A model generated the notes under the pieces. It was given only the letters and a program-made list of their open reading frames with translations. It did not search any database and had not been told where the DNA came from. The translations under genes and the position numbers were made by a program. This document shows positions 12,402 through 57,400 of a stretch of 64,000 nucleotides of DNA, piece by piece (position 1 is the stretch's first letter; every line of letters begins with the position of its first letter). The stretch is from Terriglobia bacterium (lineage in GTDB: Bacteria > Acidobacteriota > Terriglobia > 20CM-2-55-15), in contig OZ253554.1 in the NCBI GenBank assembly GCA_965262675.1, forward strand, positions 844,496 to 908,495, in the 5' to 3' direction.

Positions 12402-12593
12402 CCCGCATGCTGGCAACCCGTGGTATCGCAGGGGACCGGCCCCGGTTTCATTGGACAGATCGTCGACCGTGGCGGATAATCCAGACGTTCATCCGATAAT
12501 CCTTAATCTATCGGCACCTCGATGTACCGAGAAATAATCCTTCCGTCGGTCCGCACTCGGCTGAATTTCGCAAGGGCGGTTTCGAGAGATGGC

Positions 12594-13307
12594 ATGGTCC
12601 GGCCCGCACGCCGGTTCCCCTGGCTGCTTGCCGGTTTGCTGACACTGGCATCGTCCGCCGCCGCGGCGCCCGGGTTTCAGGAGTTGCCCGATTTGTCCGG
12701 CAACTGGATTCGCGGGGATTTCGCTGGATTAGGCCGGAGTAACCAACCCCTGGACCGCGCGATGCTCACCGTGGAAGGTCAACGCGGGATGGATGCGTAC
12801 GACTTTCTCACCGACGACCCCGCGTACGAATGCGTGCCGGCCAGTTGGACCCGGGTATGGTCGAATCCCAACGTCGTGGTCCAGGTCGATCAGTCGGACC
12901 GGGACGTGCGGCTGCGATACGAGTGGATGGATATCGATCGCAGGATCCCTCTGTACGATCCGGCCGATGCGAACGCGGAACGCGTGCATATGGAAGGCAT
13001 TCCCACGCTGGGACGTTCTATGGCCTGGTACGACGGCGACACGCTTGTCATCGACACCGTGGACTACGCGCCCGGCTACGTTTCGACGATCGCCGACCTA
13101 GCCGGACTGCCGCAAAGCCGCACCATGCACACCGTCGAACGAATTCGCCGCGAGGGTGAGGGACTGGTGATCGAAATCACGCACCTCGATCCGACCATCC
13201 TTCGCCGGCCCTTCGTCATGGCCATCAGCTACGCCCCGACGGATTTTGAGTTGCTCGACTATGGATGTTCGCCTGAATACGCACGGATCGTGGCGCCCGA
13301 CGATTAA
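12594..13307 (+). CDS. secreted protein, paralogue family L (subtype 3) of the recurring two-gene cassette
   Basis: Signal peptide; shared motifs PDLSGNW..., YDGDTLVIDT and C-terminal DYGCSPEY align with ORFs 16250, 17120, 53470 and 56151. Confidence 0.6.
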   Translation: MVRPARRFPWLLAGLLTLASSAAAAPGFQELPDLSGNWIRGDFAGLGRSNQPLDRAMLTVEGQRGMDAYDFLTDDPAYECVPASWTRVWSNPNVVVQVDQSDRDVRLRYEWMDIDRRIPLYDPADANAERVHMEGIPTLGRSMAWYDGDTLVIDTVDYAPGYVSTIADLAGLPQSRTMHTVERIRREGEGLVIEITHLDPTILRRPFVMAISYAPTDFELLDYGCSPEYARIVAPDD

Positions 13308-13322
13308 CCCGGGAGCAACCGA

Positions 13323-13721
13323 ATGAGTCTTCCACAACACGCGATCCTGGCAACGTTGCCCTCCCTGCTGCTCACCCTGGCGGCCCCGGCGCACCATTCC
13401 GTGGCCGTCAACTTCGACCAGTCCAGAGAAATCACCATCGAGGGTGTGCTCACCGAGATGTCCTGGCGCAATCCGCACTCCCATTTTCGGATCGACGTCG
13501 AGGACAGCGAGGGCCCACAATCGGAATGGCTGGTCGAAATGGGCGCGATCAACACGATGCGCAGAGCCGGATTCGAAGTCGAACTTTTCGTGCCCGGAGA
13601 GACGGTATCGATTACCGGTTGGCCGGGGTGGCGGGATCGGACGCTTTACCTGAGTTCCGCAATCCTGCAGGATGGAACGGAATTGATCTGCGCAGGCGCG
13701 TCCTGCAATCGGGAGAGGTAA
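13323..13721 (+). CDS. small secreted His-His protein (132 aa), partner S of the cassette
   Basis: Signal peptide ends ...AAPA followed by HHSVAVNFD. Conserved W.NPHSHF, E.G..N core shared with ORFs 18171 and 54333. Confidence 0.6.
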   Translation: MSLPQHAILATLPSLLLTLAAPAHHSVAVNFDQSREITIEGVLTEMSWRNPHSHFRIDVEDSEGPQSEWLVEMGAINTMRRAGFEVELFVPGETVSITGWPGWRDRTLYLSSAILQDGTELICAGASCNRER

Positions 13722-13724
13722 ATC

Positions 13725-15095
13725 ATGAACGACGGCCGCATCGACCGGCGGGAATTCATCGGAACCGCCCTCGCGGGCTCCGTCCTCGCCATGGCGCCCG
13801 AATTGGCTGGCCAACAACCTCCAGAGCTCCCGGAACGACCGAACATCGTGTTTCTGTTCGCGGACGATCTGGGTTACGGCGACCTGAGTTCCTACGGCCG
13901 GCCCGACTATCGGACGCCCGTCCTGGACCGGTTGGCCGATGACGGCCTGGCCTTCTCGGACGCCTACGCGGCCGCGCCCGTATGTTCGCCAACGCGCGTC
14001 GGTTTTCACACCGGCCGCTATCCCCACCGGTTGCCCGTCGGGGCCGGAGGCGTGGTGGGCGCCGACGACGTTTCGCTGGGCATCCCGCCGGAACATCCGA
14101 CACTGGCGACGCTGCTTCGGCGACAGGGATACGAGAACATCCTGCTCGGCAAATGGCACGTGGGCCGCGCACCCCGATTCCGCCCGAACGCGCAGGGATA
14201 CGATGAGTTTTTCGGATTCCTGACCGGAACGTCCGACTACTTCGCATATACCAATACGGCCGGTTTCCGGGACCTCTGGGACAACGATGAACCCAGCGAC
14301 GCGGAAGGCTACCTGACCGATCTGCTGACCGATCGGGCCGTCGAGGCCATTCGAAGGCCGCGCGAACAGCCGTTTTACCTGAGCCTGCACTACAACGCCC
14401 CACATTCGCCATGGGAAGGACCCGGCGACGGAGGACTCGACCACACTCATCCGGTCCAGCAGGGACCGGCCGGGTCCCCAGAGAAGTACGGCGAGATGAT
14501 GCGCAGCCTGGATGACGGGATCGGGCGGGTCCTGGCCGCACTGACCGATAGGAACCTGGATCGCACGACCCTCGTCGTGTTCACCAGCGACAACGGTGGA
14601 GCGCAGTATTCGAACAACTGGCCGTTCTCGTTTCAAAAGGGCAACTGCTGGGAAGGAGGCATACGGGTCCCGGCGATCGTGCGCTGGCCGGGCGTCGTTC
14701 CGGCAGGATTCCGAACCGGCCAGGTGGCCACGACCATGGACTGGACAGCGACATTTCTGGCCGCCGCGGGAGCGAGTCCGGATTCGAATTACCCGCTGGA
14801 CGGCGACAACCTGCTCCCGGTCTGCACGGGCGAACGGCCCGCCTACGATCGGACGCTGTTCTGGCGAAACCCCCGGCACGATGCCGTGCGATCCGGACAG
14901 TGGAAGTATCTGCGGGACCCCCAAGGGGAATATCTGTTCAATCTTCCGGCCGACCCCGGTGAACGAACCGATCTGAAGGACAATTATCCGGAAATATTCG
15001 ATTCCCTGCGAAATCGGTTCCAGGCGTGGAACCGGAAGATGGTTCCGCTTCCCGAGGCCGCGGGACCCGGCGGCCGGGGCCGCGGCGGCGTTTAG
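13725..15095 (+). CDS. arylsulfatase (formylglycine-dependent sulfatase family)
   Basis: TAT signal RREFIGTALAG; sulfatase signature PVCSPTRVGFHTGRYPHR (C-x-P-x-R); begins 4 nt after the small His-His gene. Confidence 0.9.
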   Translation: MNDGRIDRREFIGTALAGSVLAMAPELAGQQPPELPERPNIVFLFADDLGYGDLSSYGRPDYRTPVLDRLADDGLAFSDAYAAAPVCSPTRVGFHTGRYPHRLPVGAGGVVGADDVSLGIPPEHPTLATLLRRQGYENILLGKWHVGRAPRFRPNAQGYDEFFGFLTGTSDYFAYTNTAGFRDLWDNDEPSDAEGYLTDLLTDRAVEAIRRPREQPFYLSLHYNAPHSPWEGPGDGGLDHTHPVQQGPAGSPEKYGEMMRSLDDGIGRVLAALTDRNLDRTTLVVFTSDNGGAQYSNNWPFSFQKGNCWEGGIRVPAIVRWPGVVPAGFRTGQVATTMDWTATFLAAAGASPDSNYPLDGDNLLPVCTGERPAYDRTLFWRNPRHDAVRSGQWKYLRDPQGEYLFNLPADPGERTDLKDNYPEIFDSLRNRFQAWNRKMVPLPEAAGPGGRGRGGV

Positions 15096-15102
15096 CCCGC
15101 GC

Positions 15103-15260
15103 CTACAGTCTCGGAATGCAGGCGCCCCTCCGACTCCCCCTGTAGGTGCGGTCTACGACCGCACGATTACCGCACGATCTTGATTTGGGCGGTCATAGAC
15201 CGCCCCTACATTAGCTTTGGGCGATCATCGTTCACCCTCACAGTCTCGGAATGTAGCTGG
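15103..15260. mobile_element. MITE-like REP element (inverted REP pair) flanked by 17-bp direct repeats ACAGTCTCGGAATGYAG
   Basis: cctgtaggtgcggtctacgaccgcacgat ... ggtcatagaccgcccctaca lies between the two copies of acagtctcggaatg(c/t)ag. The flanking repeats look like a target-site duplication. Confidence 0.6.
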
Positions 15261-15261
15261 C

Positions 15262-16137
15262 TCACTCCCGAATCCCTTCGGGCGTGACGTTGACTTCGAC
15301 CCTGAAGCGCTGGAAGTTGCGATATTGAGCTCGCGTATCGACGGTGTGAAGGTCGCTGTCGTAGTTTTCTTCCATCGAGTCCGGAACCAGCATCCCCAGT
15401 TCGGGGCTGTCCCTGTAGCCAACCCGCATCGTGACCCGATACCGCGTGCGGGCGGACTCTCCCTCGAAGATGACCTCTGTTCTGACGACACTTCCGTTTT
15501 CGGGATCGATCCAGAACGTCCCATGCGCCGGTCGGTCTTCGCCATTGGATCCCCGCACGAGCGTGGGACTGGCGGCCTCCAGGAAACTGACCTCCCACGT
15601 ATCGACACCGTCGATGGTGCGTGTTCTATCCTGTTCGAATGAAAAGCGGTCGAGATTGTCGGGACGCAGAAATGTCAATGCAAACGTGGGGACGTTGAAG
15701 TTTCGCGAAAAGTCGCCAATGTTGTGCTGGGCGTCTGTCCGGGTTTCAAGGATTTCTTCGAGCGACTCCGGAAAGACGTCCGGAACTTCGACCGGAACGC
15801 CATCGACGCGCAGCACGTTTCTGACGCCATACCAACGCGCCCGGACTTGCAGCAACAGAAAATCCGAAGCCAGGCGCCGGCGCTCCCGTTTCACAACCGT
15901 TGGCGGAGTGTTTCCACCGAGCCACGCGGCATTCTGAACGTATTCCTCTTCGCCGATAACCGTCCCCAGTTGCCCTTCATAGTCCGCGACGTATCGGCCG
16001 GCGCGCTCCAGAACGGTAGCCAGATCGAGCGAACTCGAATCGACCTGCCCCTGGCCGGCGGCAACGCCCCCCAGAACGAACAACACCAACAGTGCGGCAA
16101 CGGCAACGGACGCGGCCGTTTCCGAAACGGTTTTCAT
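15262..16137 (-). CDS. hypothetical secreted protein (291 aa)
   Basis: Signal peptide MKTVSETAASVAVAALLVLFVLGG; no family recognised. Confidence 0.55.
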   Translation of the reverse strand: MKTVSETAASVAVAALLVLFVLGGVAAGQGQVDSSSLDLATVLERAGRYVADYEGQLGTVIGEEEYVQNAAWLGGNTPPTVVKRERRRLASDFLLLQVRARWYGVRNVLRVDGVPVEVPDVFPESLEEILETRTDAQHNIGDFSRNFNVPTFALTFLRPDNLDRFSFEQDRTRTIDGVDTWEVSFLEAASPTLVRGSNGEDRPAHGTFWIDPENGSVVRTEVIFEGESARTRYRVTMRVGYRDSPELGMLVPDSMEENYDSDLHTVDTRAQYRNFQRFRVEVNVTPEGIRE

Positions 16138-16249
16138 GACATCGAGTGTAGCTCCACTCTCGGTTTTCGCGGACTAAATCCGATACCTGCTGGGTTCTCT
16201 TGACATTTGTTGTAAACTGCGGAAATCGAACAAACCGGGGGTCGCCAGA

Positions 16250-17104
16250 GTGAAAACACGGTCTCGACATGCAAGAGTCCTCATCGCCGCCATCACGTCG
16301 ATCACGAGCCTCTCGTTAGCAGTTGACATTGCGGTTGCTCAGACGCCGGACTACGAAGCGCCTCGCCTGATCGGGACCGGGAACCCCGACCTGAACGGCG
16401 TCTGGCAGACACTGAACACTGCGAATTGGAATATCGAACCGCATGCGGCCGGGCGTGCGGCGTTCGCGGAACTTCAGGGCGCGATCGGGGCGGTCCCCGC
16501 CGGACAGGGAGTTGTCGAGGGCGGCGAGATCCCATATCAGGAGTGGGCCGAAGCGCAGAGGCAAATAAACTTCGAACAGCGGTTCACGAGACCCATCGAC
16601 CGGCAAACCAACGAAACAACCGGCGACCCCGAGGCCAAGTGTTATCTGCCGGGCGTGCCGCGCGCCACCTATCTTCCCTATCCGTTTCGCATCGTCCAGA
16701 CGCCGTCTCAGATCCTGATCGCGTATGAATACGCCAACGCCACCCGTGTGGTGCACATGGATCGGGAACCCGTCAGCCCGTCGCTTTCCTGGATGGGCTG
16801 GTCGATCGGCCGCTGGGAGGGAGACACGCTGGTCGTGGAGGTTACCGACCAATTGGCATCCACATGGTTTGATCGCGCCGGCAATTTTCACAGTGAGGAT
16901 CTACGTGTGGTCGAGCGTTACACACCGATCGGCCCGGACCACCTGATGTACGAAGCCACGATTGAGGATCCGGCCGTGTTTACGCGCCCCTGGACCATAC
17001 GCATGCCGCTGTACCGCCGGATCGAGGAAAACGCGCAAATTCTGGAGTTCAAGTGCGTGGAGTTCGTTGAAGAGTTCATGTATGGACACATGGTCGACGA
17101 TTAG
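16250..17104 (+). CDS. secreted protein, paralogue family L (subtype 1)
   Basis: About 50% identical to ORF 53470. Motifs NPDLNGVWQTLNTANWN, DPEAKCY.PGVPR, SWMGWSIGRWEGDTLVV, EATIEDP, IEENAQILEFKCV. Confidence 0.65.
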   Translation: MKTRSRHARVLIAAITSITSLSLAVDIAVAQTPDYEAPRLIGTGNPDLNGVWQTLNTANWNIEPHAAGRAAFAELQGAIGAVPAGQGVVEGGEIPYQEWAEAQRQINFEQRFTRPIDRQTNETTGDPEAKCYLPGVPRATYLPYPFRIVQTPSQILIAYEYANATRVVHMDREPVSPSLSWMGWSIGRWEGDTLVVEVTDQLASTWFDRAGNFHSEDLRVVERYTPIGPDHLMYEATIEDPAVFTRPWTIRMPLYRRIEENAQILEFKCVEFVEEFMYGHMVDD

Positions 17105-17119
17105 ACGGGAGATGTTGCG

Positions 17120-18166
17120 ATGAATAATCGATTGCTGCTTGGAATGGGTGTGCTGATCGCCGGGCTGTCGCTTGCGGCCCTGCCCACCGTCGCACAGGCC
17201 TTCGCACAGGAAGAAGTGGCCCAGGACTGGACCCGATCATACACGCCCTGGGGCGATCCGGACCTGCAGGGGGTGTACACGTTCTCGACCAATACTCCTC
17301 TGGAGCGCCCCGAAGCGCTTGGGGACAAGGCAACGTACACGGAAGCCGAACTGGCGGAACTGGAGGCGCAGGCCGCCGAAAGACTCACCACCGAGGGCGG
17401 CGCGCTCCAGGCGGGCAACGTCGGCAGCTATAACAGCTTCTGGACAAGCAACGAAAAGGGACGGTTGATGAACCGCACGTCGCTGGTGATCGACCCGCCC
17501 GACGGCCGTCTTCCCCAGGTTCGGGAGCAGGCGCAGATTGTTTGGGAAGAGCAGGCGGCGGACTTGGCGGATCGGACCGTTGGCGAGGCGCCTTTCGTCG
17601 AAACGCTGTACCGCACATGGACAGACTTCCCTGCCTATGAACGTTGCCTCGCTCGTCCGATGCCTCGAGTCTGGCAATCCTACAACCACGGCGTTCAGAT
17701 TCTGCAGACCCCCGGCTACGTGGTGATCCACTACGAGAGCATGAACGACGTGCGCATCGTTCCGCTGGACCAACGCCCGCCTCTTCACGACAACATCCGG
17801 CAGTGGAATGGGGACTCGCGCGGTCACTGGGAAGGCGACACGCTCGTGGTCGACTGGTCCAACTTCAGCGACAAGCAATTGTTCGATGGGGGGCGTGCAC
17901 GCCAGCCCCTGAATTTGCCTCAGGGCACCATGCGCTTTACCGAACGGTTTACGAAGGTCGACGCCAACACGATCGACTACGAAGTCACCGTTGTGGATTC
18001 GGCCATGTGGTCCGAACCCTGGACATTCGCCCTGCCCTGGCGGGGCGACGATCCGAATTATCAGGAACCTGAAGATCTTTATGAATTCGCCTGTCACGAA
18101 GGCAACTACAGAATGATGGAAAACTCACTGAAGGGGTCGCGCGCCCTGGAAGAGCAGTCCAACTAG
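17120..18166 (+). CDS. secreted protein, paralogue family L (subtype 2)
   Basis: Homologous to ORF 56151 (TPWGDPDLQGVY, IDPPDGR.P, QSPGYVV, GHWEGDTLVV, YEFACHEGNY). Confidence 0.65.
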   Translation: MNNRLLLGMGVLIAGLSLAALPTVAQAFAQEEVAQDWTRSYTPWGDPDLQGVYTFSTNTPLERPEALGDKATYTEAELAELEAQAAERLTTEGGALQAGNVGSYNSFWTSNEKGRLMNRTSLVIDPPDGRLPQVREQAQIVWEEQAADLADRTVGEAPFVETLYRTWTDFPAYERCLARPMPRVWQSYNHGVQILQTPGYVVIHYESMNDVRIVPLDQRPPLHDNIRQWNGDSRGHWEGDTLVVDWSNFSDKQLFDGGRARQPLNLPQGTMRFTERFTKVDANTIDYEVTVVDSAMWSEPWTFALPWRGDDPNYQEPEDLYEFACHEGNYRMMENSLKGSRALEEQSN

Positions 18167-18170
18167 GGAG

Positions 18171-18614
18171 ATGCAATCGATGTCAATAAAATCATTCGCC
18201 GCCGCCGTCGGCATCTGCGGACTTCTGCTCGTTGCCGCAACGGCGCCCGCCCTGTCCCATCACGCGTTTTCCGCCGAGTTCGATGCGTCGAAACCGATCG
18301 AGTTGCGTGGAACGGTCACCAAGGTCGAATGGATCAATCCGCACAGTTGGATCACGATCGACGTCAGCGGGCCCGATGGCGGATCCGAAATCTGGGAAAT
18401 CGAGGCCGGCGCCCCCAATGCAATGTTCCGGCGCGGCTTCACCCGCGATTCCCTGCCGCTCGGGACTGAAATCCTGGTCAACGGTTTCCAGTCCAAGGAC
18501 GGTGCGAATCGTGCCAACGGCAGGGACCTGACCCTGCCCGACGGCAACAGATTGTTCGTCGGGTCGGCCGGGACCGGAGCGCCCGCGGACGGGCGCGATT
18601 CAACTGAACGTTAG
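18171..18614 (+). CDS. small secreted His-His protein (147 aa), partner S
   Basis: Signal peptide ...APALS then HHAFSAEFD, followed by KVEWINPHSW and the rest of the conserved core. Confidence 0.65.
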   Translation: MQSMSIKSFAAAVGICGLLLVAATAPALSHHAFSAEFDASKPIELRGTVTKVEWINPHSWITIDVSGPDGGSEIWEIEAGAPNAMFRRGFTRDSLPLGTEILVNGFQSKDGANRANGRDLTLPDGNRLFVGSAGTGAPADGRDSTER

Positions 18615-18766: not shown

Positions 18767-20218
18767 TCAGTAGGTGTACTGGATGTAAATGTTGAGCCGG
18801 TTGTCGGTGCCTTCATTGGCCATCTTGTATTTCGTTTGCCAACGGATGTATTCGAACCCGGTCGTCACCGGAGGCCCCAGCCTGAACTGGGTATGAAAAT
18901 ACCCGGCGCGATTCAGGCTGATCCCGCCCGAGGGAACATGCCCATTGTTCGGGTCATCCACGGTGTAGCCCGTAAAGAAACCAACGTTCCCGCCGCGCAA
19001 TCCCATCTCGATCCATCCGCCGCGGCTGTCGATTTCCTTTCCTGTCAGCCTGTTGAACGATTGACCGGCGCCGCCGCGTACGTCTCCCATATTGCTGCCC
19101 TTCCACAGCTCTCCACGCAAGCTCACCTGGGGTGTCAACCGGAAATCGAAGTCTCCACCGAAGGAATAACTTTCGAAGTCATTCTTTCTCGCGAAGGCCG
19201 TGCTGGTGTGCTCCCGAGCGTAGTGGCTCCAAAGTCCCACAAAGGCCCGTCCGTTGGGCGTGTTGTATCCGACGCGCCCCTGCAGACCCGGCATGGCAGA
19301 GGCTTCCCCGTCCCTTATTCCGTCGCCATCGGCATCCTGGCCATTGAGAGCGCCGGTCAAGACCAGGCCCGTCTGGAGGTTGAAGCCAGGGCTGGTGCTG
19401 GTTCCGTAGCTGTAACGAAGTTGCGTCCGGCGGTCGCCCGGGTTTCCGGCGTTCCACATCAATGTTTGCAAGTTTACGTTCGGAAAAATGGGAGAAATGA
19501 TGTCGGAAGTCTGGCCCGCCAAAAGCGAATGCCGTTGCCAGTTGAGTTGTAGGAACACGTGGCGGTATCGGGGAATGCCTCGGGAATCGCTACCGCCATT
19601 GAGGAAATCGATTTCGAACTTGCCGTTTACCGTTGCACCACCTACGGCGTCCAGGGTGCCGGGCGCCCTGTAGTTGACACCGAAACGGGTCATGCGGGGA
19701 TGCAGGGTGAAGTTGGCTTGATTGTCCGCATCGGGTTGTTCGGATCGGACCACGGTGGGCGCCTGAAAGTTGTTGATCCGAGAGTCGTCAAGAGCCGCGT
19801 CGAGCCGTGCGAAGCCATAGAACGTCAAGGCGCTGCGATTTGTTTCGGCTTCAAGTACCGTCGGCTGTGCCTGCGTGGGGGGCGGTATCACACGCCGCGA
19901 TACCGGCGCCGCGGCGGGCGGAAAGATGGGAAAGGTCGACGCCACCTGGACCGCGTTTGCGACCGTGGGGTTGCGGTCCAGGGTCTCCAGACGCGATTGG
20001 ATCGCGGCCAATTGCTCCTGGATGGCCGTGTTCTGGGCCTGGATGGCCAGGTTCTGGGCCTCGAGTTCCACGATCCGCCGGCGGAGTTGTTCCAATTCGG
20101 CGCGGTCGTTCGACTGCGCCTCGGGGTTTTGAGCGTTCGTCGCGGACGAATTCACAAGAATCGCCACCATCGCGAGACCTGGCAAGATGAGGTGTGAAAA
20201 CTTCGCGGTTCTGGACAT
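18767..20218 (-). CDS. outer-membrane porin with an N-terminal coiled coil (DcaP / phosphate-selective porin-like beta-barrel)
   Basis: Signal peptide, a heptad-rich LEAQNLAIQAQNTAIQEQLAAIQSRLETL region, alternating beta strands and a C-terminal ...IYIQYTY (aromatic terminus). Confidence 0.6.
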   Translation of the reverse strand: MSRTAKFSHLILPGLAMVAILVNSSATNAQNPEAQSNDRAELEQLRRRIVELEAQNLAIQAQNTAIQEQLAAIQSRLETLDRNPTVANAVQVASTFPIFPPAAAPVSRRVIPPPTQAQPTVLEAETNRSALTFYGFARLDAALDDSRINNFQAPTVVRSEQPDADNQANFTLHPRMTRFGVNYRAPGTLDAVGGATVNGKFEIDFLNGGSDSRGIPRYRHVFLQLNWQRHSLLAGQTSDIISPIFPNVNLQTLMWNAGNPGDRRTQLRYSYGTSTSPGFNLQTGLVLTGALNGQDADGDGIRDGEASAMPGLQGRVGYNTPNGRAFVGLWSHYAREHTSTAFARKNDFESYSFGGDFDFRLTPQVSLRGELWKGSNMGDVRGGAGQSFNRLTGKEIDSRGGWIEMGLRGGNVGFFTGYTVDDPNNGHVPSGGISLNRAGYFHTQFRLGPPVTTGFEYIRWQTKYKMANEGTDNRLNIYIQYTY

Positions 20219-20495
20219 CGAAAATTCTCCTCTGAAAATATCCCTCAGGCTCATTTTCACGATTCGCGGGATCATGGACGGCTCTCTTGACTGTTCCCGC
20301 GGGGCACAAGCGAACAGCGCCGCGATCCACCGATACGGTTCCGGTCGAGTCCGGCTTCAACCAGACCAGCCGCCCGATTCCGATAATACATCCGTTCGAA
20401 CGCCGCCGGAGATGTCTCCGGCCGGTTCCGGCAATCGCTCCGTATTGTAGTGCGTCAATCTCTTTCGATGGAACCTGCCGGCCGATCTCGTCCGA

Positions 20496-20894: not shown

Positions 20895-22466
20895 ATGATA
20901 TCCGGCAGACTTGCAGGCATGGTGTTTGGGGTTGGGTTCCTCATATCCGCCCCGGCCTTGGGCAACGAGGCCGACTTGGCCACCGCCGCCAGGGTGGGTG
21001 ACTGGGCGGCGGTTATTGCCCTTGTCGACGATGGCGTGGATGTCAACACCAAGGACCTGGACGGCAACCGGGCGCTGCACTGGGCGGTTCGCTCCGATGC
21101 CACGGAAGCGGCCGGGCGGCTCCTTGAAAGTGGCGCGGATCCCGCGGTCGAAAACCGTCACGGAGTTACGCCGCTCTATCAGGCTGCGGAGAACGGCAAT
21201 GCTTCGATCGCACGGTTGCTCATCGAGGCCGGCGCCGATCCGAATCAGGTGGACCGGACCGGGGAAACGATCCTGATGATCGCCACCCAGACCGGCGATG
21301 CCGAGACGGTCCGGGTACTCCTCGATCATGGCGCCGATGTCACCGCGACCGATCCGGAATTTGGACAAACCGCCCTGATGTGGGCCGCGAGAGGCGATCG
21401 TCCCGGCTTGGTCGAAATGCTGATCGATCATGGCTCGGATGTCACCGCGCGTACCCGGCGGGGTGAAACCCCCGCGCCCCGGCTGCCGTGCATCGGCAGA
21501 ACCGGGTGCGGCTCTCACGGGCTGGGCATCATCCGGGGAGGGCTTCCGGAGCGTGGCAAGCGCGCTCCGATCCCTGGCGAGATGACGCCCCTGATGTACG
21601 CCGCCCGGGAGGGGCGGACCGAATCGGCGCGGCTCTTGCTGGAAGCCGGAGCGGACGTGAACGCGGTTGACGCGAACGGCATCGCGCCTCTGCTTCTTGC
21701 GATCGGCAACTATCGAATCGAACTGGCCGAGTTGCTGCTGGATCGTGGCGCCGATTTGAATGCGGTGGACTGGTATGGACGAACGCCGTTGTGGGCTGCC
21801 GTCGAGATGCGGAATGTGGATCTGCACTATTCGACCTTCGAGCATATGATCGACGCGGACGATCGCGAGGAGATCCTGGAATTCATTCGCGCGCTGCTGG
21901 ATCGGGGGGCCGAAGTCAACGTCCGGATTCAGGAAGTCCCGCCGCTTCGGAGTTGGATGTATCTGCTTGGAGGCTCTCTGGCGTGGGTGGACTTTACCGG
22001 ACAAACACCGTTTCTGCTCGCCTCGTTATCCGGTGACATCGCCACGATGCGGCTTCTGCTCGAATACGGCGCAAACCCCTACATTTCCACTTTTGAAGGT
22101 ACGACTCCCCTGATGGCTGTCGCGGGAATCAACTGGGTGGTGAATCAGACATTCACCGAGTGGGACTCGCTCGTCGAAGCGGTCGAACTCTGTTGGGAAC
22201 TTGGAATGGATGTGAACGCGGTGAACTCGATGGGGCTCACCGCCCTGATGGGTGCGGCCAACCGGGGTTCATCCGACATCATCGAGTTCCTGGTGGACAG
22301 GGGCGCACGCCTCGATGCGAGGGACAACGAAGGCCGGACGCCGCTCACATGGGCCGAGGGGGTGTTTCTGGCCACGCACGCTCCCGAACCCAAGCCCGAA
22401 TCGATTGCGGTGATCCGGGACTTGATGGATCGGACGAACGTGGCGGATGCCGGCGTACCCGAATAG
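20895..22466 (+). CDS. ankyrin-repeat protein with a signal peptide (about 12 ANK repeats)
   Basis: Repeated G.T.LH.A...G......LL..GAD.N motifs; N-terminal hydrophobic signal. Confidence 0.85.
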   Translation: MISGRLAGMVFGVGFLISAPALGNEADLATAARVGDWAAVIALVDDGVDVNTKDLDGNRALHWAVRSDATEAAGRLLESGADPAVENRHGVTPLYQAAENGNASIARLLIEAGADPNQVDRTGETILMIATQTGDAETVRVLLDHGADVTATDPEFGQTALMWAARGDRPGLVEMLIDHGSDVTARTRRGETPAPRLPCIGRTGCGSHGLGIIRGGLPERGKRAPIPGEMTPLMYAAREGRTESARLLLEAGADVNAVDANGIAPLLLAIGNYRIELAELLLDRGADLNAVDWYGRTPLWAAVEMRNVDLHYSTFEHMIDADDREEILEFIRALLDRGAEVNVRIQEVPPLRSWMYLLGGSLAWVDFTGQTPFLLASLSGDIATMRLLLEYGANPYISTFEGTTPLMAVAGINWVVNQTFTEWDSLVEAVELCWELGMDVNAVNSMGLTALMGAANRGSSDIIEFLVDRGARLDARDNEGRTPLTWAEGVFLATHAPEPKPESIAVIRDLMDRTNVADAGVPE

Positions 22467-22493
22467 AGGCGGCCCGGGCGACATGTTTCACTC

Positions 22494-24860
22494 ATGTTTC
22501 ACTCAAGAGAGACGGCATTGACCGGGAAGACCCGGTCGGCATGGGTGGCGGCCGCACTGTTGGCGCTTGGCCCGCACGCTGTCACTCTTGCGGCGGTGCC
22601 CGCGCAGGCCACCCCGGAAGCGGCGGTTCCAACTGAATTCTCCCGGGATCGGGCGCAAGGGCTTCTCGACCGATACTGTCTGACCTGCCACAATTCGACC
22701 GCAAACACTGCGGGCCTTGCCCTCGACACAAAGGACGCGGAGATCGTGGGTCCGGATGCCGAGGTCTGGGAATCTGTCGTCCGCAAGATCCGCACCGGCC
22801 TGATGCCTCCAGGGGAAGCGCCCCGGCCGATACGTCGAGACCTGGATGGTTTGGCATCATGGCTCGAGGCCGGACTGGATCGTGCTGCCGCCGGCGCCCC
22901 CAATCCGGGATCGCCCACGCTTCACCGGCTGAACCGGACCGAGTATGCCAATGCGATCCGTGACCTGCTCGATCTCGAGATCGACGCGTCGACGCTGCTT
23001 CCCGTAGACAGATCGGCTGCGGGCTTCGACAACGTCGCCGACGTGTTGAGTACATCTCCGGCGCTCATCGACGGCTATCTCTCCGCGGCGATGAAGGTGA
23101 GCCGTCTGGCGGTTGGCGACCTGACGGCGCCGCCGCGCATCGTGACCCATCGTGCGCCTGACGACCTGTCACAAACCGGACACATCGAGGGCTTGCCGCT
23201 CGGAACTCGCGGAGGCATGGTCGTGCGGCATGTGTTTCCGCTGGATGCCGAGTACGAGTTCGCTGTCGGCGGCGGTGGTCCGGACCTCGACTTCACGATT
23301 GACGGCGAGAGCGTTCCGGCGGGCGATCGTGACGGGATCGTACGACAAGTCTCCGCCGGGCCCCATACTCTCGCCGCTTCCCTGGTACGGACTCTTCGAT
23401 CCGCCGGTGTCGATGACACGTTCAGTGCGCCGGTCAGCAACCGTGGCGGTATCCAGAGTATTACGGTAACGGGTCCACTCGATCCGACCGGTCCGGGGGA
23501 CACACCCAGTCGTCGCCGGATTTTCGTTTGCCAACCGGCAGGCGCCGAAGATGAATTGCGTTGCGCGCGCGATATCCTGGGCGCCCTGGCCCGGCCGGCG
23601 TTCCGGCGGCCTGTCCCCAACGATGATCCGGTAATGACAACGCTCGTCGAATTCTACGAGGCGGGACGCGGCGAAGGCACGTTCGAAACCGGCATCCAGC
23701 ATGCTCTGGCGCGCATCCTCGTAGACCCGCGGTTCATCTTCCGCATGGAACATGTGCCAGACGAACTGGCCGTGGGCGCGGTCTACCCTCTGACGGATAT
23801 CGAAATCGCGTCGCGTCTCTCCTTCTTTCTCTGGAGCAGCATTCCCGATGACGAACTTCTCGAAGTGGCGGCGTCCGGCATGCTCTCCGATCCTGCGACG
23901 TTCGAAGAGCAAACCCTTCGCATGCTGGCAAATCCACGATCCCAGGCACTGATCGACAACTTCGCCGCGCAGTGGATGGGCCTGAGGGAACTCGAAGACG
24001 CCGCGCCCGAATCGGACGGCTTCGACGCCAATCTGCGGCTGGCCTTTGAGCGCGAGACGCGCCTGTTGTTCGAGCACATCGTCAACGAAGACCGGAGCAT
24101 CGTTGAACTGTTGGATGCGGATTACACGTTTCTGGATCAGCGTCTTGCCGAACACTATGGCATTCCCGGCGTCCGTGGAAGTCGAGTGCGCCGGGTTGCG
24201 CTCGATCCCGACAGCCCGCGGCGCGGCATTCTGGGGCATGGCAGCATCCTTCTGGTGACATCGGTCGCCAACCGGACATCGCCGGTTGTCCGCGGGAAGT
24301 GGGTTCTCGAGAATCTGCTCGGTGCGCCACCGCCGTCCCCGCCGGCTGGCGTGGAGACCAACCTTGACGAGACACCGGATGCGGTGGCGTCGGGGACTTT
24401 GCGCGCGCGACTGGAGCAGCACCGCGCAAATCCGGCTTGCGCCTCCTGCCACGGCATCATGGACCCTATCGGCTTCAGCCTGGAGAACTTCGATCTGACC
24501 GGACGGTGGCGGGAATACGACGGGGATGCGCCGATCGACGCGTCTTCCGAACTGGCGGACGGTACCGTTCTGGACGGTCCCGCGAGTCTTCGAAGGGCGT
24601 TGCTGCTGCGTTCAGACGCGTTCGTGTCGACTGCCGTCGAGAAGTTGTTGACCTACGCCACCGGACGGGCGGCGGAATATTACGACATGCCGGCTATCCG
24701 TTCCATCGTTCGCGGCACCGCCGCCTCGGACTACCGTTTCTCATCGCTCGTCCTGGGTATCGTAGCGAGTCCACCGTTTCAAACACGGGTCAAGGCGGTG
24801 GAGCGTAACGATACGGTGGCCGAAGCGGAACTGGCGGTAGAAACGCCCGGGCAGGACTGA
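22494..24860 (+). CDS. DUF1592/DUF1595/DUF1587/DUF1588-type protein with an N-terminal cytochrome-c-like CxxCH motif
   Basis: CLTCHN heme-binding motif near the N-terminus and a long multi-domain body. It forms the canonical pair with the downstream DUF1552 gene. Confidence 0.8.
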   Translation: MFHSRETALTGKTRSAWVAAALLALGPHAVTLAAVPAQATPEAAVPTEFSRDRAQGLLDRYCLTCHNSTANTAGLALDTKDAEIVGPDAEVWESVVRKIRTGLMPPGEAPRPIRRDLDGLASWLEAGLDRAAAGAPNPGSPTLHRLNRTEYANAIRDLLDLEIDASTLLPVDRSAAGFDNVADVLSTSPALIDGYLSAAMKVSRLAVGDLTAPPRIVTHRAPDDLSQTGHIEGLPLGTRGGMVVRHVFPLDAEYEFAVGGGGPDLDFTIDGESVPAGDRDGIVRQVSAGPHTLAASLVRTLRSAGVDDTFSAPVSNRGGIQSITVTGPLDPTGPGDTPSRRRIFVCQPAGAEDELRCARDILGALARPAFRRPVPNDDPVMTTLVEFYEAGRGEGTFETGIQHALARILVDPRFIFRMEHVPDELAVGAVYPLTDIEIASRLSFFLWSSIPDDELLEVAASGMLSDPATFEEQTLRMLANPRSQALIDNFAAQWMGLRELEDAAPESDGFDANLRLAFERETRLLFEHIVNEDRSIVELLDADYTFLDQRLAEHYGIPGVRGSRVRRVALDPDSPRRGILGHGSILLVTSVANRTSPVVRGKWVLENLLGAPPPSPPAGVETNLDETPDAVASGTLRARLEQHRANPACASCHGIMDPIGFSLENFDLTGRWREYDGDAPIDASSELADGTVLDGPASLRRALLLRSDAFVSTAVEKLLTYATGRAAEYYDMPAIRSIVRGTAASDYRFSSLVLGIVASPPFQTRVKAVERNDTVAEAELAVETPGQD

Positions 24861-24886
24861 GAGTTTCGATTGAAGAGATTGCGGAA

Positions 24887-26197
24887 ATGAACTTTATTTC
24901 GAAGAAGCATCTGGCGCGGAGGACGTTCCTCCGGGGCGCGGGCGCGACGCTGGCTCTGCCATTGCTCGATTCGATGGTGTCGGCACAGACTCCCTTGAAC
25001 CGAACGCCGGCGTCGCCACAAAGCCGGTTCGCGTGCATCTACTTTCCTCACGGAGTCACGATGGACAAGTGGACGCCCGCGACTGAAGGGAAGGATTTCG
25101 AATTTACCGAGATCCTGAAGCCTCTCGAACCATTCAGGGAACGCATCAACGTCGTGAGCAACCTGTATGCGCCCTCGGCATACGGCGCGGATGCTTCGGC
25201 CGGGGCCAATCACGAGCGGTCCTCGGCCGTGTTTTTGACCGCGGCCAGGGCTGAAGAGGGCGCCCGCGTTTTTCTGGGCCCGTCAGTGGACCAGATTGCG
25301 GCCCGAACGATTGGCCAGGACACTCCGTTGCCCTCCATTGAACTCACGGTCCAGGAAGGGGGACGAACCAGTCCCTACCGGAACACGATTTCCTGGCAGT
25401 CCGCAACGACGCCCCTTCCGATGGAGCATAATCCCCAGGCAGTTTTCGAGAAACTGTTCGGGGATGGGACGACCGATGCCGAACGTGGGGCGCGTCGTCA
25501 ACAGTCCCGAAGTCTGTTGGACTCGGTTGTGGACCAGATCGCCACCTTGAACTCGGAGTTGCCGGCTGGAGACAGGGGCCGGCTCGGCGAATACCTGGAC
25601 AACGTCCGCGAGATCGAGCGCCGGATCGAGAAAGCGGAGGCACGGATGGCGACGGCGGACCTGGAGGTGCCCGAGGCGCCCGTAGGCATACCGAATGCGT
25701 TCGAAGACCACATCGAGTTGCTTTTCGATCTGCAGGTGCTCGCGTGGCAGGCCGAGATCACGCGAATTTCGACGTTGATGCTGGCCCCCGAACTCAGCAA
25801 TGCGGTCTATCCCGGCACGGGAATCCGTGACGGGTTTCACAACCTCTCGCACCACTCCCACAGTCGGGCCAACATGGATCGGTTCGCCGAACTCAACGCC
25901 TACCACCACGGTATGTTGGCTTACTTCCTGGAGAGTCTGGCGGCGACGCCCGACGGCGACGAGACGCTCCTCGACAACTCGTTGATCCTCTACGGCAGCG
26001 GCATGAGCGACGGCAACGCGCACAACCACACCCCACTGCCTCTGGTGCTGGCCGGAGGCGCCGCCGGAAATCTGGCGGGGGGACGGCACATCAAGGCCCG
26101 CCGCGAAACGCATGCGAACCTGCTCCTCGCGATGCTCGACAAACTCGGGGTTCCGGCGGAACAATTCGGTGACAGCACCGGTCTGGTGGAGATTTGA
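24887..26197 (+). CDS. DUF1552 family protein (TAT-secreted)
   Basis: RRTFLRGAGATLALPLL TAT signal; conserved partner of DUF1592 proteins. Confidence 0.8.
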   Translation: MNFISKKHLARRTFLRGAGATLALPLLDSMVSAQTPLNRTPASPQSRFACIYFPHGVTMDKWTPATEGKDFEFTEILKPLEPFRERINVVSNLYAPSAYGADASAGANHERSSAVFLTAARAEEGARVFLGPSVDQIAARTIGQDTPLPSIELTVQEGGRTSPYRNTISWQSATTPLPMEHNPQAVFEKLFGDGTTDAERGARRQQSRSLLDSVVDQIATLNSELPAGDRGRLGEYLDNVREIERRIEKAEARMATADLEVPEAPVGIPNAFEDHIELLFDLQVLAWQAEITRISTLMLAPELSNAVYPGTGIRDGFHNLSHHSHSRANMDRFAELNAYHHGMLAYFLESLAATPDGDETLLDNSLILYGSGMSDGNAHNHTPLPLVLAGGAAGNLAGGRHIKARRETHANLLLAMLDKLGVPAEQFGDSTGLVEI

Positions 26198-46671: not shown

Positions 46672-49600
46672 TCAGGAATTATGCGGATTAAGAACATCCT
46701 CCAGACGCTCGCGTGCCGCTCGGCTGAGCCGGGCGATTCCTAACGCCCGTGCAAGTTCAACTACATCGCCATTGAGGTCTAGTGTCTCGTCAATGTGTTG
46801 CAATTCTTCCGCGCAGATGTGCTCGGGTTTGCGCATCTCCTCGTCTCGGTTAGCATAGCGCGCGGGGACCAACCGATTCTTGACCGTGCCCTTTCGCCAA
46901 AAGAAGAGGCCGACATCCTCGTTCGTGCGCCCCCGCCGGTTCTTGGCGAGGCGCAACACCAGATTGCGAATCTGACGTCCGGCGCGTTGGAAATCGTGAT
47001 GACGGGCAATTCGACGGCTCAGAATATCCTCATGGATCGGCCCTTCGATATCGACAATGTGATCGATCATCGCTTTAAGCCTCCGTTCGTACTCCTCGTC
47101 GTAGAAGCGCGATGGATCGGGCACAAACGCACCACCAGCAAGACGACTTTTGACGTAACGATGGGTTTCCTCCAGAGCGGTCTCGCTCGAAAAGACGAGA
47201 GACGGCTGCTCCTCGGCGGAATTTACCTGGGCGGCCTTTGCGGTCGCACCCTGGAGGCGGTGCCCCTCATTTCCCGCACGTATAGAGTAAGTCCGTTTGA
47301 CGTCGCGTTGCCGCGAGGACGTCTCCTTGGAGCCGTTTTCGTAAGGTAGGACGCCATCGACGTCTATAGGGCTGTGATCTTCAGAAACCGGCTCTTTGCG
47401 CTCCCCGTCGTCTCTTGCAGCTTTGCGGCGCTGTCTATCCTCCTCCAGATGCTCCCTCAACTGGCGATCGAGCTTTTCGAGCGCCCCCACCTTGTTGATC
47501 CACCAGTCCGTTGACCATACGCGGAAGAGGGTCCAACCGAGTCCCTCCAGCACTTCCTGACGGATCTTGTCGCGTTCCCGGGCGAAGGCGGAACTGTGGT
47601 ACATCGCCCCGTCGCATTCGACGCCCGCGAGATAGACCCCGGGCTCGTCTGGATGGACGACTCCGAGATCTATCCGGAACGAACTGACGCCGATCTGCGG
47701 GTGGATCGTCCACCCTTTCTCACGAAAGGACCGTGCAACGGCAATTTCGAACGGCGATTCGAAATCTCCAAGCGAACCGTGAACACCTGCGCCAAGCGCT
47801 ATCGGCCCGCGTTCGGCATATTCAAGAAAATGCTTCAGATCCTTCACCGCTTCCGCGTTCGTGCGGGAAAGGTCGATCTTATCGGGGTGCAGTGTCGCGA
47901 AAACGACCATCTCAGAACGCGCTCGAGTCAATGCAACATTGAGGCGCCTTTCGCCCCCCTCCCGGTTCAAAGGACCGAAATTCATAGACACATGGCCGGA
48001 TTGGTCCGGCCCATACGTAACGCTGAAGAGGATCACGTCGCGTTCGTCGCCCTGAACAGTCTCGAGGTTCTTGACGAATACCGCCTCCTGATGGTTCTCA
48101 TCGAAAGCCCATTCGATGCTCGGATTGGCGGCCCGCGCCCTATCCAACAGATCCTCGATTAGCGACTGCTGTTCTGTATTGAAAGTGACGACACCGATGG
48201 TGGCCTGTTTCACCTCAGGTTCGTCCGAAGTGAGGCGCCGGACGACCTCAGCGACGATCACTTTCGCCTCTCGTTCATTGTGTCGCGCCTTGCCACGGGC
48301 ATAAAACCCGTCGGGCCGGACCAACCGAACGCCGGAATCCGGACGGATCGGCGCCGGGAAGGTGATGAGGCTGTTGTCGTAGTAGCGACTGTTCGAGAAG
48401 GCGATCAAGCTTTCCCGGCGGGAGCGATAGTGGAGATTGAGCGTGCATTCCGGGATGCTGGAGCTTCGCAATTCGTCCAGGATACTCTCCAGATCACCGT
48501 CATAGTCGATGTCACCGTCAGGATCGTCGTCAGCGCGGTTGAAAAAGTTGGTCGGCGGCATCTGCTTCGGATCGCCTGCGACAATCACCTGCATCCCGCG
48601 CGCTATCGAACCCACGGCATCCCAGACCGTGATCTGCGACGCCTCGTCAAAAATCACCATGTCGAACAAGGCTTGTTCCGCCGACAGATATTGCGCGACG
48701 GAAAGCGGCGACATCATCAGACAAGGGGTGAGCTTGGTTACCACATCGGGTGCCTCTTGCATCAGTTGGCGTACCGGCTTATGACGCTTTTTCTTGTTGA
48801 TCTCGTGCCGCAAGACGCCCCATTGGGAACTTTTCTTCACATCATCCTGAACCGGGATCTGGCCGCTCAGTCCGGCTGCGATATAGGCTGCCGTAATCTT
48901 TTGGAAGGATGCGTCGATCTGCCGGAACTTCTCGATCGTATCCATATGTTCGGCGGTCGAGAATGTACGTAGCACCTCGTCTTCGCCAATCACCATAGAC
49001 GACCACCAAGCGCAATACGCGGCCTCAAACGTCTCCAGAATCTCGTCAATGGGAACACGCCCCTTCTCGATCCCGTCTACCAGCGGTGCAAGGTCGAGAT
49101 CCATCGCCTCTGTCCGCCGCTTTCGCCAGGCACACCAGTCATGCAACTCCGCTCGCCGGGCAATGATCGTCTCGGCAGTCTCACACAATGCCTCAAGCGC
49201 CCGGTCTTTCTCCGAAAAAGCCTCGCGCACGACGCGTCCGGCGCGCTCTTCGAAGGCCCGGCTTGCACTCTGCAACGTGTCGAGTGTCTTCAAATACTCC
49301 GCTGCCGCGCGGCCCACAATTGCTTCCGGGGCAAGCAGGTCATTGCCGTCCTGCAGAAGCATCCGCACCTTGCGACGCACCTCCGCTAGCGCCTGCGCAT
49401 CGTCGGCGAGCCATCCGACCGATGTGCGCGCTCGATCGCCCAGATCTCGCAACGCCTGCGCGGCCTGCGGATCGGTCGTGTGCGCCTCCCACTCCTTGAG
49501 CGAGGAAAGTTGCTTGTCGAGGCGATCGATCGCCTCGCCCTCCTCGCGAAGTGAGGTCAGCAACGGGGCGTCGCGCGCAGGATTCGGCTCGCCTCGGGCC

Positions 49601-54332: not shown

Positions 54333-54731
54333 ATGCAGAGCAGACTGATGAGTGTTATTGCGAGCGCCGGAGTCCTGATGGCGGCGGCGTTGCCCGCGGC
54401 GGCGCACCATTCCTTTTCCGCCGAGTTCTCCCGGGAGAGGCCGGTCACGCTCGAGGGCGAAGTGGTCATGATGGAGTGGGTGAACCCGCATTCGTGGCTG
54501 CACATCGACGTGCCGCAGGCGGACGGCTCCGTCGAACGCTGGAAGGTTGAAGGCGGGTCACCGTCGGTATTGATGCGCCAAGGATGGAACAGGGATTCGC
54601 TGCCGGCCGGCACGAAGGTCAGAGTCGAAGGTTTCGGGGCGAAGGATGGCGCGTTCCGGGCCCAGTCGCGAGGACTTGAGTTCCCCGATGGCCGACGTCT
54701 GGAGCTTGGCGGCACGGCAAGTCCCGATTAG
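54333..54731 (+). CDS. small secreted His-His protein (132 aa), partner S
   Basis: ...ALPAAA then HHSFSAEFS...MMEWVNPHSWLHIDV... Confidence 0.65.
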   Translation: MQSRLMSVIASAGVLMAAALPAAAHHSFSAEFSRERPVTLEGEVVMMEWVNPHSWLHIDVPQADGSVERWKVEGGSPSVLMRQGWNRDSLPAGTKVRVEGFGAKDGAFRAQSRGLEFPDGRRLELGGTASPD

Positions 54732-55816: not shown

Positions 55817-56095
55817 CTACACTAACTCAATGTTCACGCGGCGCCCGACCATTGCGGCGGCCCGTTGCAGGCTGCCGAGCGTGATGTCGTTGTTCGGATC
55901 GAGCAGCCGGTCCACCTGGGTGCGGCTCGTCTTCAGCAGCGTCGCCATCTTGTTCTTGGAGATGTTCTTCTGCTTCATGGCCTCCGCGAGCTGCCACGCG
56001 ACGACCTCCTTGATCGCCTGCGCCTGCGTTTCCTCGAAGATGCCTTCCTCCTTAAGGAAGGCATCGATGCTCGAACCCATATGCGTCTTGCTCAT
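55817..56095 (-). CDS. XRE-family HTH protein (antitoxin-like)
   Basis: ...ISKNKMATLLKTSRTQVDRLLDPNNDITLGSLQRAAAMVGRRVNIELV. Confidence 0.55.
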   Translation of the reverse strand: MSKTHMGSSIDAFLKEEGIFEETQAQAIKEVVAWQLAEAMKQKNISKNKMATLLKTSRTQVDRLLDPNNDITLGSLQRAAAMVGRRVNIELV

Positions 56096-57200: not shown

Positions 57201-57329
57201 TGCCGTTACGCAACCGATACCGAACTGGCACCAATCCGGCACCAATGGTTACTTGTGCGAAAAACCGGTCGACATCTTCGGTTTTCCGTTCGCCGATGAT
57301 ATCACCATACCTGCGGCAAACGTGCCGTC

Positions 57330-57400
57330 ATAGATCGCGCGGTCGATCGCGCGGTAGATCGTGCGGTCATAGACCGCACCTACACTGGCCTACACTGGGA
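57330..57400. repeat. degenerate REP copy gtgcggtcatagaccgcacctaca with upstream cgcggt-gatcg sub-repeats
   Basis: Same palindromic core as the other REP copies. Confidence 0.6.

Follow-up and report, generated by a model that had tools for sequence, protein, structure and literature searches.

A small DUF6152 protein with a predicted His-His mature N-terminus recurs beside an unnamed calycin-like protein family in a Terriglobia bacterium and beyond

What might two exported proteins do together when they recur side by side and the smaller of them is predicted to begin, once its signal peptide is removed, with two consecutive histidines? The question is raised by a 64-kb stretch of the genome of a Terriglobia bacterium (contig OZ253554.1; this whole stretch is referred to here as the window), in which genes for a large protein (L) and a small protein (S) lie next to each other in three cassettes. 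We tentatively propose that S is an N-terminal-histidine metal-binding subunit (Cu or Ni) that works with the L barrel and with the membrane protein DUF6644. A first-pass annotation of the same DNA had reported five large and three small open reading frames (ORFs), all of which are present as given; family hidden Markov models (HMMs) for L and S, run over the entire window, recovered exactly five L and three S genes and no others.

In the first cassette, L1 (12594-13307, + strand), a divergent short member of the large family whose signal peptide ends AAAA↓PG, is followed by S1 (13323-13721, +; DUF6152, E 3.9e-22, 78.6 bits; leader ...LAAPA↓HHSVAVNFD; NPH loop). The L1 ORF opens at 12522, and the start at 12594 fits the 237-aa gene calls in 95%-identical relatives. 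The second cassette is an L-L-S triple, which opens with L2 (16250-17104, +; ~285 aa type), continues with L3 as its middle gene (17120-18166, +; ~345 aa type), and ends with S2 (18171-18614, +; DUF6152, E 7.8e-32, 109.7 bits; leader ...APALS↓HHAFSAEFD); L2 and S2 are the two proteins whose structures were modelled. The third comprises L4 (53470-54270, +), a paralogue of L2, and S3 (54333-54731, +; DUF6152, E 5.2e-33, 113.5 bits; leader ...PAAA↓HHSFSAEFS). The remaining gene, L5 (56151-57245, - strand), is a paralogue of L3 that has no adjacent S; it likely starts at the ATG at 57200 and, with the lipobox LTG↓C, is probably a lipoprotein. An export signal is present on all five window L proteins, and each window S sits directly 3' of an L, at intergenic gaps of 15 nt (L1-S1), 4 nt (L3-S2), and 62 nt (L4-S3), while L2 and L3 are separated by 15 nt. 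The tight downstream placement of S had been recognized before, but the values of 16, 5, and 63 nt attached to it were start-minus-end differences and not the true gaps.

The three small proteins are clear members of DUF6152 (PF19649; E 4e-22 to 5e-33, all above the Pfam gathering threshold of 27 bits), with mutual identities of 33-49% and pairwise BLAST E-values of 2e-10 to 2e-36 (all pairwise E-values between window proteins are given at a database size of 1e9). No NCBIfam model matched S, PDB sequence and profile searches returned no solved relative, and a literature search found no mention of DUF6152 or PF19649. The feature of S that most calls for an explanation is its predicted mature N-terminus, for which we placed the cleavage site by the -3/-1 rule only. 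The leaders of the window proteins are hydrophobic and end in APA (S1), ALS (S2), and AAA (S3) right before His-His. Among 120 close homologues retrieved via S2, His-His directly followed the signal-peptidase site in every one, with Ala (112), Gly (6), or Ser (2) at position -1 and, in 113 of the 120, Ala (66), Val (39), or Leu (8) at position -3. Because these homologues had been retrieved via S2, we added a second sample, namely S domains from metagenome-contig loci chosen via L. Of these domains, every one with a covered N-terminus (58 of 58) carries His-His just behind a signal-peptidase site, with Ala (51), Gly (3), Thr (2), Ser (1), or Pro (1) at position -1, and every one contains an xPH loop; the residues beyond His-His vary freely (for example, HHGKGAFD, HHSEAGFD, and HHAWHGYD). 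Moreover, both His-His and xPH are kept at 25-35% identity in Paracoccus, Caballeronia, Cupriavidus, and Azospirillum (A↓HHGWS...). The rule thus agrees with cleavage directly before His-His, as first suggested, in S1-S3 and in the homologues examined, and under it a His is the first residue of mature S, as in histidine-brace proteins.

An AlphaFold2 model of S2, built from a 45-sequence alignment with the signal peptide still attached (predicted local distance difference test score, pLDDT, 79), is a barrel of five strands, the third linked to the fourth through a helix, and by this model S is an oligonucleotide/oligosaccharide-binding (OB) fold protein. Invariant in the 45 sequences are His30, His31, a Gly in strand 1, and W54-x-N56-P57-H58 in the turn between strands 1 and 2, along with several further Gly, Trp, Glu, and Arg positions; none of the invariant or near-invariant columns is a Met. 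His2 and the xPH His, both invariant, are the candidate second His ligands, in a model that is unreliable at residues 30-32. Two known types of site were considered and rejected for S: (i) a CopC-, PmoF-, or lytic polysaccharide monooxygenase (LPMO)-type fold, i.e., an immunoglobulin (Ig)-like or cupredoxin-like β-sandwich, is ruled out by the OB-fold model, and the earlier comparison of the small protein with these proteins does not extend to the fold, S being a member of no known histidine-brace family; and (ii) a CusF-type internal His/Met/Met(/Trp) Cu(I) site is ruled out by the lack of a conserved Met.

The five large proteins had been described as paralogues of three subtypes, and pairwise BLAST together with leave-one-out HMM values bears this out. 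L2 and L4 are 53% identical (E 5e-76), L3 and L5 are 37% identical (E 3e-59), and cross-subtype pairs gave E-values of 2e-13 to 6e-7; L1 is marginal in pairwise comparison (E 1e-3), and a profile built without it recognizes it at 4.4e-9. On the strength of these values, the three subtypes L2/L4, L3/L5, and L1 are real at the level of sequence. The columns invariant across the five window copies comprise P-D-L-x-G, two Cys, the LV of the WEGDTLVV block, and ER. In the C-terminal E-[FY]-x-C-x-E motif noted previously, the Cys is invariant, and three of the five copies match the motif strictly. A disulfide between the two invariant Cys is probable and would suit an exported protein.

Neither Pfam nor NCBIfam contains a match for any of the five window copies, and when 41 L members were compared with Pfam at E-values up to 10, there were four unrelated single-member matches (best E 0.012), none of them credible. 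RefSeq labels the homologues "hypothetical protein", and the PDB sequence search with the L profile gave nothing significant. Neither partner had seemed placeable in a named family; this holds for L, whereas S has a Pfam name, albeit that of an unstudied family. The L family is large: in a search of 5.8 billion proteins, all 8000 of the 8000 scored candidates were significant homologues, and the five-paralogue profile collected 18,491 clusters at 50% identity with E <= 1e-3, or 10,494 with E <= 1e-10. Of ten long members of the family, nine, probably tandem L-L proteins, gave no Pfam domain, and the tenth carries an N-terminal glyoxalase/vicinal oxygen chelate (VOC) domain; P0361 (528 aa) and P0476 (587 aa) are examples of these long forms, tandem or glyoxalase/VOC-bearing. 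In one further protein (P0358), an L domain is joined to a TonB-receptor Plug domain, an arrangement that may be a gene-call artefact.

A model of L2 (pLDDT 77) begins with an N-terminal strand carrying PDLNGVW, followed by a mainly helical or coil insert and then by eight strands. In fold comparison, it scored 9-9.7 against fatty-acid-binding proteins (FABPs) and cellular retinol-binding proteins (CRBPs) and 8.4 and 7.6 against nitrobindin-type barrels, with many lipocalins coming next. The modelled barrel accords with the eight- to ten-stranded antiparallel β-barrel of calycins, and we assign L, on this model, to the calycin β-barrels of FABP, nitrobindin, and lipocalin type; the lipocalin suggestion made earlier for the large partner is thus sustained at fold level. 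A GxW on the first strand is the signature of calycins. The L motif P-D-L-x-G-x-W/Y, which we take to correspond to this signature, lies on strand 50-53 of the L2 model; its Gly is invariant, and among the five window copies it ends in Tyr in L3 and in Trp in the other four.

Is the association of S with L a peculiarity of this genome? An S-centred scan with the S alignment as query and one genome per species yielded at least 598 confirmed matches, and the counts given here refer to the best 80 of these loci, which contain 91 S domains (HMM domain envelopes mapped onto DNA). These loci are mostly acidobacterial (Vicinamibacterales and Bryobacterales), and the others come from Gemmatimonadota, Rhodospirillaceae, Holophagales, and the gammaproteobacterial Porticoccaceae, Ca. 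Rariloculaceae, and Ca. Multivoraceae. For 73 of the 91 S domains, the nearest L is a same-strand gene that ends fewer than 400 nt upstream of S (median distance 62 nt, S leader included); for nine, it lies directly downstream; for five, elsewhere within 3 kb; and four have no L within 3 kb. The L-L-S triple seen at 16250-18614 (~285, ~345, and ~145 aa) recurs in many loci, including two complete genomes, and both cassettes are kept in synteny in 95%-identical relatives. In the L-centred sample, 24 of 97 determinable L genes lead to a downstream S, 28 come directly after an S, and 45 are without an S neighbour. S therefore nearly always has an L, whereas L often stands alone, as L5 does.

The pairing is, in sum, conserved across Acidobacteriota, Gemmatimonadota, and Alpha-, Beta-, and Gammaproteobacteria. 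Three outcomes would have spoken against the first-pass annotation, and what we found was the opposite of each: L and S belong to no well-characterized family, the predicted cleavage falls before His-His, and the pairing extends beyond this genome. Two of its statements need amending. The gene order is not strict, S-then-L being as common as L-then-S in the L-centred sample, and the two-gene module, although a real pairing, is part of something larger, given the L-L-S triple and the recurrence of DUF6644 in other genomes.

Gene fusions carry the association further. A 354-aa protein encoded in a Ca. Rariloculaceae genome carries both an S and an L domain, and, used as a query, it retrieved more than 100 clusters of 350-384 aa with at least 95% coverage, including SAR86 and other marine Gammaproteobacteria. 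Among these fusions, 100 of 101 open with a signal peptide (AxA) and then directly HHSF.... Two marine gammaproteobacterial loci carry this type and, in tandem with it, a second fusion type (406-431 aa, HHSAVVFD), and an acidobacterial fusion, together with three more in the L-chosen sample, has the same layout. At least five fusions beyond the 354-aa clade are known to us, all with S first and L second, an order opposite to the usual L-then-S order of the separate genes in the window and in the S-centred sample. With S always first, His-His remains N-terminal in every mature fusion protein, and the existence of such proteins argues, from sequence, for a physical coupling of S and L. At the tandem fusion loci (L083/L084, from SAR86, and L087/L088), a TonB-dependent receptor and a regulator of TetR or MarR type are encoded divergently or close by, and the SAR86 locus has a receptor-S-L operon alongside.

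Does a third gene belong to the system? No universal same-strand partner emerged: 40 same-strand operonic neighbours were heterogeneous, with DUF6644 among them four times, and it was a both-strand HMM search that brought this family (PF20349) to the surface. In that search, DUF6644 lies beside the cassette in 24 of 80 genome loci, usually as a tandem pair and often convergent, 30-70 nt after S, in Acidobacteriota, Gemmatimonadota, and Gammaproteobacteria (for example, at L171:7391-7864, L170:3388-4363, and L009:6818-7851, all outside the window); the HMM search found no DUF6644 gene in the window. Tight S-DUF6644 operons without L occur in Paracoccus versutus, Caballeronia grimmiae, Cupriavidus campinensis, and Azospirillum brasilense, with a gap of 2-3 nt in two annotated records of those cultured genera. 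Sinorhizobium mexicanum has an S-L-M-M operon, in which M is DUF6644, and in Novosphingobium humi two divergent DUF6644 genes accompany L-S-TetR. The family, of ~155 aa, is predicted from its sequence to have four transmembrane (TM) helices, and in its alignment a His is invariant where TM1 begins, alongside the motifs DLRLLG and, C-terminally, GRxI. A profile search found no PDB relative, a literature search found no mention, and the Pfam matches beyond the family itself are weak (DUF2214, E 0.0015; UPF0093, E 0.26, in one member and far below threshold). A relationship to CopD was rejected on an hhalign comparison of seven DUF6644 sequences with E. coli CopD/YebZ (probability 0.8%), a weak test with a single CopD sequence.

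How, then, might S, L, and DUF6644 work? The metal-site reading of S draws on the invariant His-His at the predicted mature N-terminus because such termini have precedents as amino-terminal metal sites. In a histidine brace, copper is bound by the amino group and N-π of His1 and by another His in a T-shaped N3 arrangement, and the hallmark of such proteins is a His1 preceded by a signal peptide (PMC10952591). YcnI, with a mono-His brace, exchanges Cu(II) with the CopC-CopD protein YcnJ, and both CopC/CopD and YcnI/YcnJ are pairs of an N-terminal-His periplasmic protein and a membrane partner (PMC8424229, PMC12362106). More recently, a search for His at mature position +1 ("signal-strapping") yielded new periplasmic Ni and Cu binders, some of which adjoin TonB receptors or are permease-fused; DUF6152 and DUF6644 are absent from that paper and its supplements (PMC12537917).

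Against this background, S resembles the histidine-brace proteins (LPMOs, CopC, PmoF, and YcnI) in its predicted cleavage directly before a conserved His and in its further invariant His, and its pairing with DUF6644 resembles the membrane pairing of CopC/CopD and YcnI/YcnJ. It differs from them (i) in its OB-fold, which is not Ig-like, cupredoxin-like, or a β-sandwich, and in the lack of sequence similarity; (ii) in an extra invariant His at position 2, with copper binding being an inferred property in the case of S; and (iii) in its usual partner, a calycin barrel, which occurs in none of those systems. DUF4198 (Ni), DUF6702, and the Ang-1/Ang-2 "anglerases" (HupE/UreJ-2-fused) are likewise periplasmic with a conserved His at +1, and the adjacency of DUF4198 to TonB receptors and of Ang to a membrane permease both recall S (PMC12537917); their β-sandwich and Ig-like folds, their membership in other Pfam families, and the lack of a barrel partner set them apart. 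As for fold, CusF is a small periplasmic OB-type barrel that carries metal, much as is proposed for S. This Cu(I)/Ag(I) chaperone uses an internal His/Met site, however, and S has no conserved Met. L, for its part, has no Pfam or NCBIfam sequence match to the named calycin families (lipocalins, FABPs, nitrobindin, and ZinT/YodA), and it is distinguished by an insert of up to ~90 residues that separates the GxW strand from the other barrel strands and by its conserved disulfide; compared with ZinT/YodA, the metal-binding relative, the L system has its His-rich terminus on a separate OB protein. A literature search for "histidine brace" together with "OB-fold" found nothing.

In the mechanism that we tentatively favour, S would be exported by Sec and cut by signal peptidase I directly before His-His, which would leave a small OB-fold barrel whose first residue, His1, has a free amino group and precedes His2. 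At this terminus a divalent transition metal would be bound, Cu(II) being the likeliest and Ni(II) the alternative, with the invariant His of the xPH loop as the likely third ligand and a geometry of either histidine-brace or NikM/ATCUN-like (amino-terminal Cu and Ni) four-nitrogen type. A brace and a NikM-like four-nitrogen site, the latter using His2 and the xPH His, are equally plausible. L would be a variable periplasmic partner, with many paralogues and subtypes, that physically associates with S, and elsewhere S would also, or instead, pair with one or two copies of the four-TM inner-membrane protein DUF6644. S would capture the metal with His-His and then present or transfer it to its partners: the membrane protein may take the metal from S for transport, and the metal may also be handed to L itself or delivered at the opening of its barrel, which would hold an organic ligand or a metallophore. 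We infer metal binding, the identity of the metal, the contacts of S with L and with DUF6644, and the direction of transfer alike.

Several observations weigh against a metal-binding S. The window-paralogue alignment of L contains no invariant His, Met, or free Cys able to accept a metal. The column of L2 His214 is a His in 41 of 58 S-adjacent copies (71%) and in 17 of 31 S-less copies (55%), and this His, which is mildly commoner beside S, is not decisive as a co-ligand. Residues 30-32 (HHA) of the S2 model have pLDDT values below 50, and the geometry of His-His with respect to His58 cannot be read from it. About half of the L genes have no adjacent S, from which it follows that L has a role that needs no neighbouring S. 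Further, dozens of paralogues per genome are unusual for metal trafficking; the regulators found nearby are of MarR, TetR, and LysR types, which sense organic molecules more often than metals; and DUF6644 has no detectable similarity to E. coli CopD/YebZ by hhalign (0.8%), its only other resemblances being the weak ones to DUF2214 and UPF0093. Given the lack of conserved ligands in L, the organic-sensing regulators, and the unusual paralogy, our confidence in the metal reading is limited.

In a different, metal-free arrangement, L barrels would bind hydrophobic or amphipathic organic molecules that arrive by TonB-dependent receptors or porins, and S would be an adaptor that docks on L and DUF6644 to pass the cargo on, its His-His serving for docking or for plugging the barrel. 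The calycin fold is a classic binder of small ligands, L is highly diversified with many paralogues, and the neighbourhoods contain MarR/TetR regulators, TonB receptors, and genes of a catabolic kind for a sulfatase, metallo-β-lactamase (MBL)-fold proteins, an amidohydrolase, and pyrroloquinoline quinone (PQQ) dehydrogenases; TonB-dependent receptors and MarR/TetR regulators adjoin S/L in SAR86, in another marine gammaproteobacterium, and in Croceibacterium, where C. atlanticum has the order S-S-L-TonB receptor-MarR. However, docking leaves unexplained why His-His is invariant while later residues drift, and why S is at the free N-terminus in every fusion, and S-DUF6644 operons exist that contain no L at all. 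We therefore regard such a shuttle as unlikely, if worth keeping in sight.

A second alternative would make the system a split copper oxidoreductase, with S as a brace-type copper centre, L as an exchangeable substrate pocket, and electrons arriving through DUF6644 as a haem-b carrier (via the TM1 His), periplasmic cytochromes, or PQQ dehydrogenases. Histidine-brace proteins do include oxygenases and peroxygenases (PMC10952591), a cytochrome c and a PQQ dehydrogenase adjoin one fusion gene, and one invariant His per four-TM subunit, encoded by tandem genes, would fit bis-His haem ligation. The newly characterized families with His1 after a signal peptide, however, were only weakly active as oxidases or peroxidases and were judged to be binders or transporters (PMC12537917); the neighbours are heterogeneous, with no constant redox partner; and the catalytic-looking invariant residues of L are D, Q, R, E, and R, with none beyond these. 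We consider this version quite improbable. Its broadest form, in which DUF6152, calycin L, and DUF6644 would together be an unrecognized, phylum-spanning periplasmic copper system, a modular split metallo-oxidoreductase with an OB-fold histidine-brace-type centre, substrates held in interchangeable barrels, and a DUF6644 pair supplying electrons or metal, would have no parallel among described enzymes and is a long shot. Finally, a role in haem or tetrapyrrole handling, with haem held in a nitrobindin-like L, S His residues as axial ligands (as in the OB-fold haem chaperone CcmE), and a HemJ-like DUF6644, has in its favour the weak UPF0093/HemJ match of one DUF6644 member (E 0.26) and TonB receptors nearby in some genomes, but we find it scarcely credible, because the resemblance is at fold level only, L has no conserved proximal His, the UPF0093 match is far below threshold, a free N-terminus is not known to be required for haem ligation, and no haem-uptake or -degradation genes were seen among the neighbours.

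Two enzymes encoded beside the cassettes were weighed as possible partners. A sulfatase (PF00884; 13725-15095, +), with the Tat (twin-arginine translocation)-type leader DRREFIG, follows S1 by 3 nt, in keeping with the operon proposed earlier, but the link is lineage-specific: it is kept only in 95%-identical relatives and is missing from L1-like genes at <= 39% identity, and we rejected the sulfatase as a conserved partner. An MBL-fold hydrolase with its own signal peptide (54874-55719, +) is present after S3, as reported; its ORF opens at 54646, and its start is most likely near 54874, i.e., not directly after S3. It is not a conserved partner either, since the window MBL and an MBL beside a fusion gene share 21% identity (E 1.1) and are not orthologues. 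Sulfatase and MBL are therefore treated as local context, the one being confined to near-identical relatives and the other non-orthologous.

Upstream of L1 lie genes for a major facilitator superfamily (MFS) transporter, a periplasmic binding protein, and a Cache-domain protein. No common inverted repeat, as a shared operator might present, was found upstream of L1, L2, L4, and L5. Cassette 2 is flanked by genes for two exported proteins without a Pfam match (15262-16137, -, and 18767-20275, -), both of which are syntenic in the 95%-identical loci L177/L178 (289 aa; 483-485 aa); in the 502-aa flanking protein, a porin-like region comes after an N-terminal coiled coil. Farther along (20895-26197, +) are a 523-aa ankyrin-repeat protein, a PSCyt/PSD protein (DUF1587/1592/1588/1585), and a DUF1552 protein, a trio that is syntenic in L177. 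Just upstream of the third cassette, 46672-52638 (-) encodes a 1988-aa protein with DUF4011, an AAA_11/AAA_12 helicase, an REase_MTES_1575 nuclease, and DUF3320. Between the MBL gene and L5 lies a 92-aa ORF (55817-56095, -) without a Pfam match, in which the GC content at third codon positions (GC3) is 0.88. Beside L5, an efflux cluster at 57438-62324 (-) encodes a MacB/FtsX permease and then three consecutive HlyD-family membrane-fusion proteins, and the spacer between L5 and the MacB-type permease gene contains imperfect ~12-nt repeats and palindromes at 57322-57379 (GATCGCGCGGTCGATCGCGCG...).

We found no paper or annotation that describes the S-L association, the S-first fusions, or the DUF6644 link, in line with the earlier suspicion that the module may be undescribed. 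What is known here is S, by its Pfam name; what is new is the unnamed L family, the S-L association, the S-first fusions, and the link to DUF6644. The system resembles those in which an N-terminal-His periplasmic protein works with a membrane partner, with a new scaffold and an additional calycin partner.

Secreted N-terminal-His proteins have repeatedly proved to be important metalloproteins, as LPMOs, CopC, YcnI, and the recent Ni and Cu binders attest, and the same signature is absolutely conserved here on a new scaffold, the OB-fold. It comes with two obligatory-looking, unstudied partners, namely an unnamed calycin family of more than 18,000 clusters and the four-TM DUF6644, in a system that is abundant in soil Acidobacteriota and Gemmatimonadota and in marine SAR86. 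Tractable cultured carriers exist in Paracoccus versutus, Azospirillum brasilense, Cupriavidus, Sinorhizobium, and Novosphingobium, so the hypothesis is directly testable. Even if S binds no metal, tens of thousands of "hypothetical proteins" would gain an annotation once the L family is named and defined together with its association with S and DUF6644.

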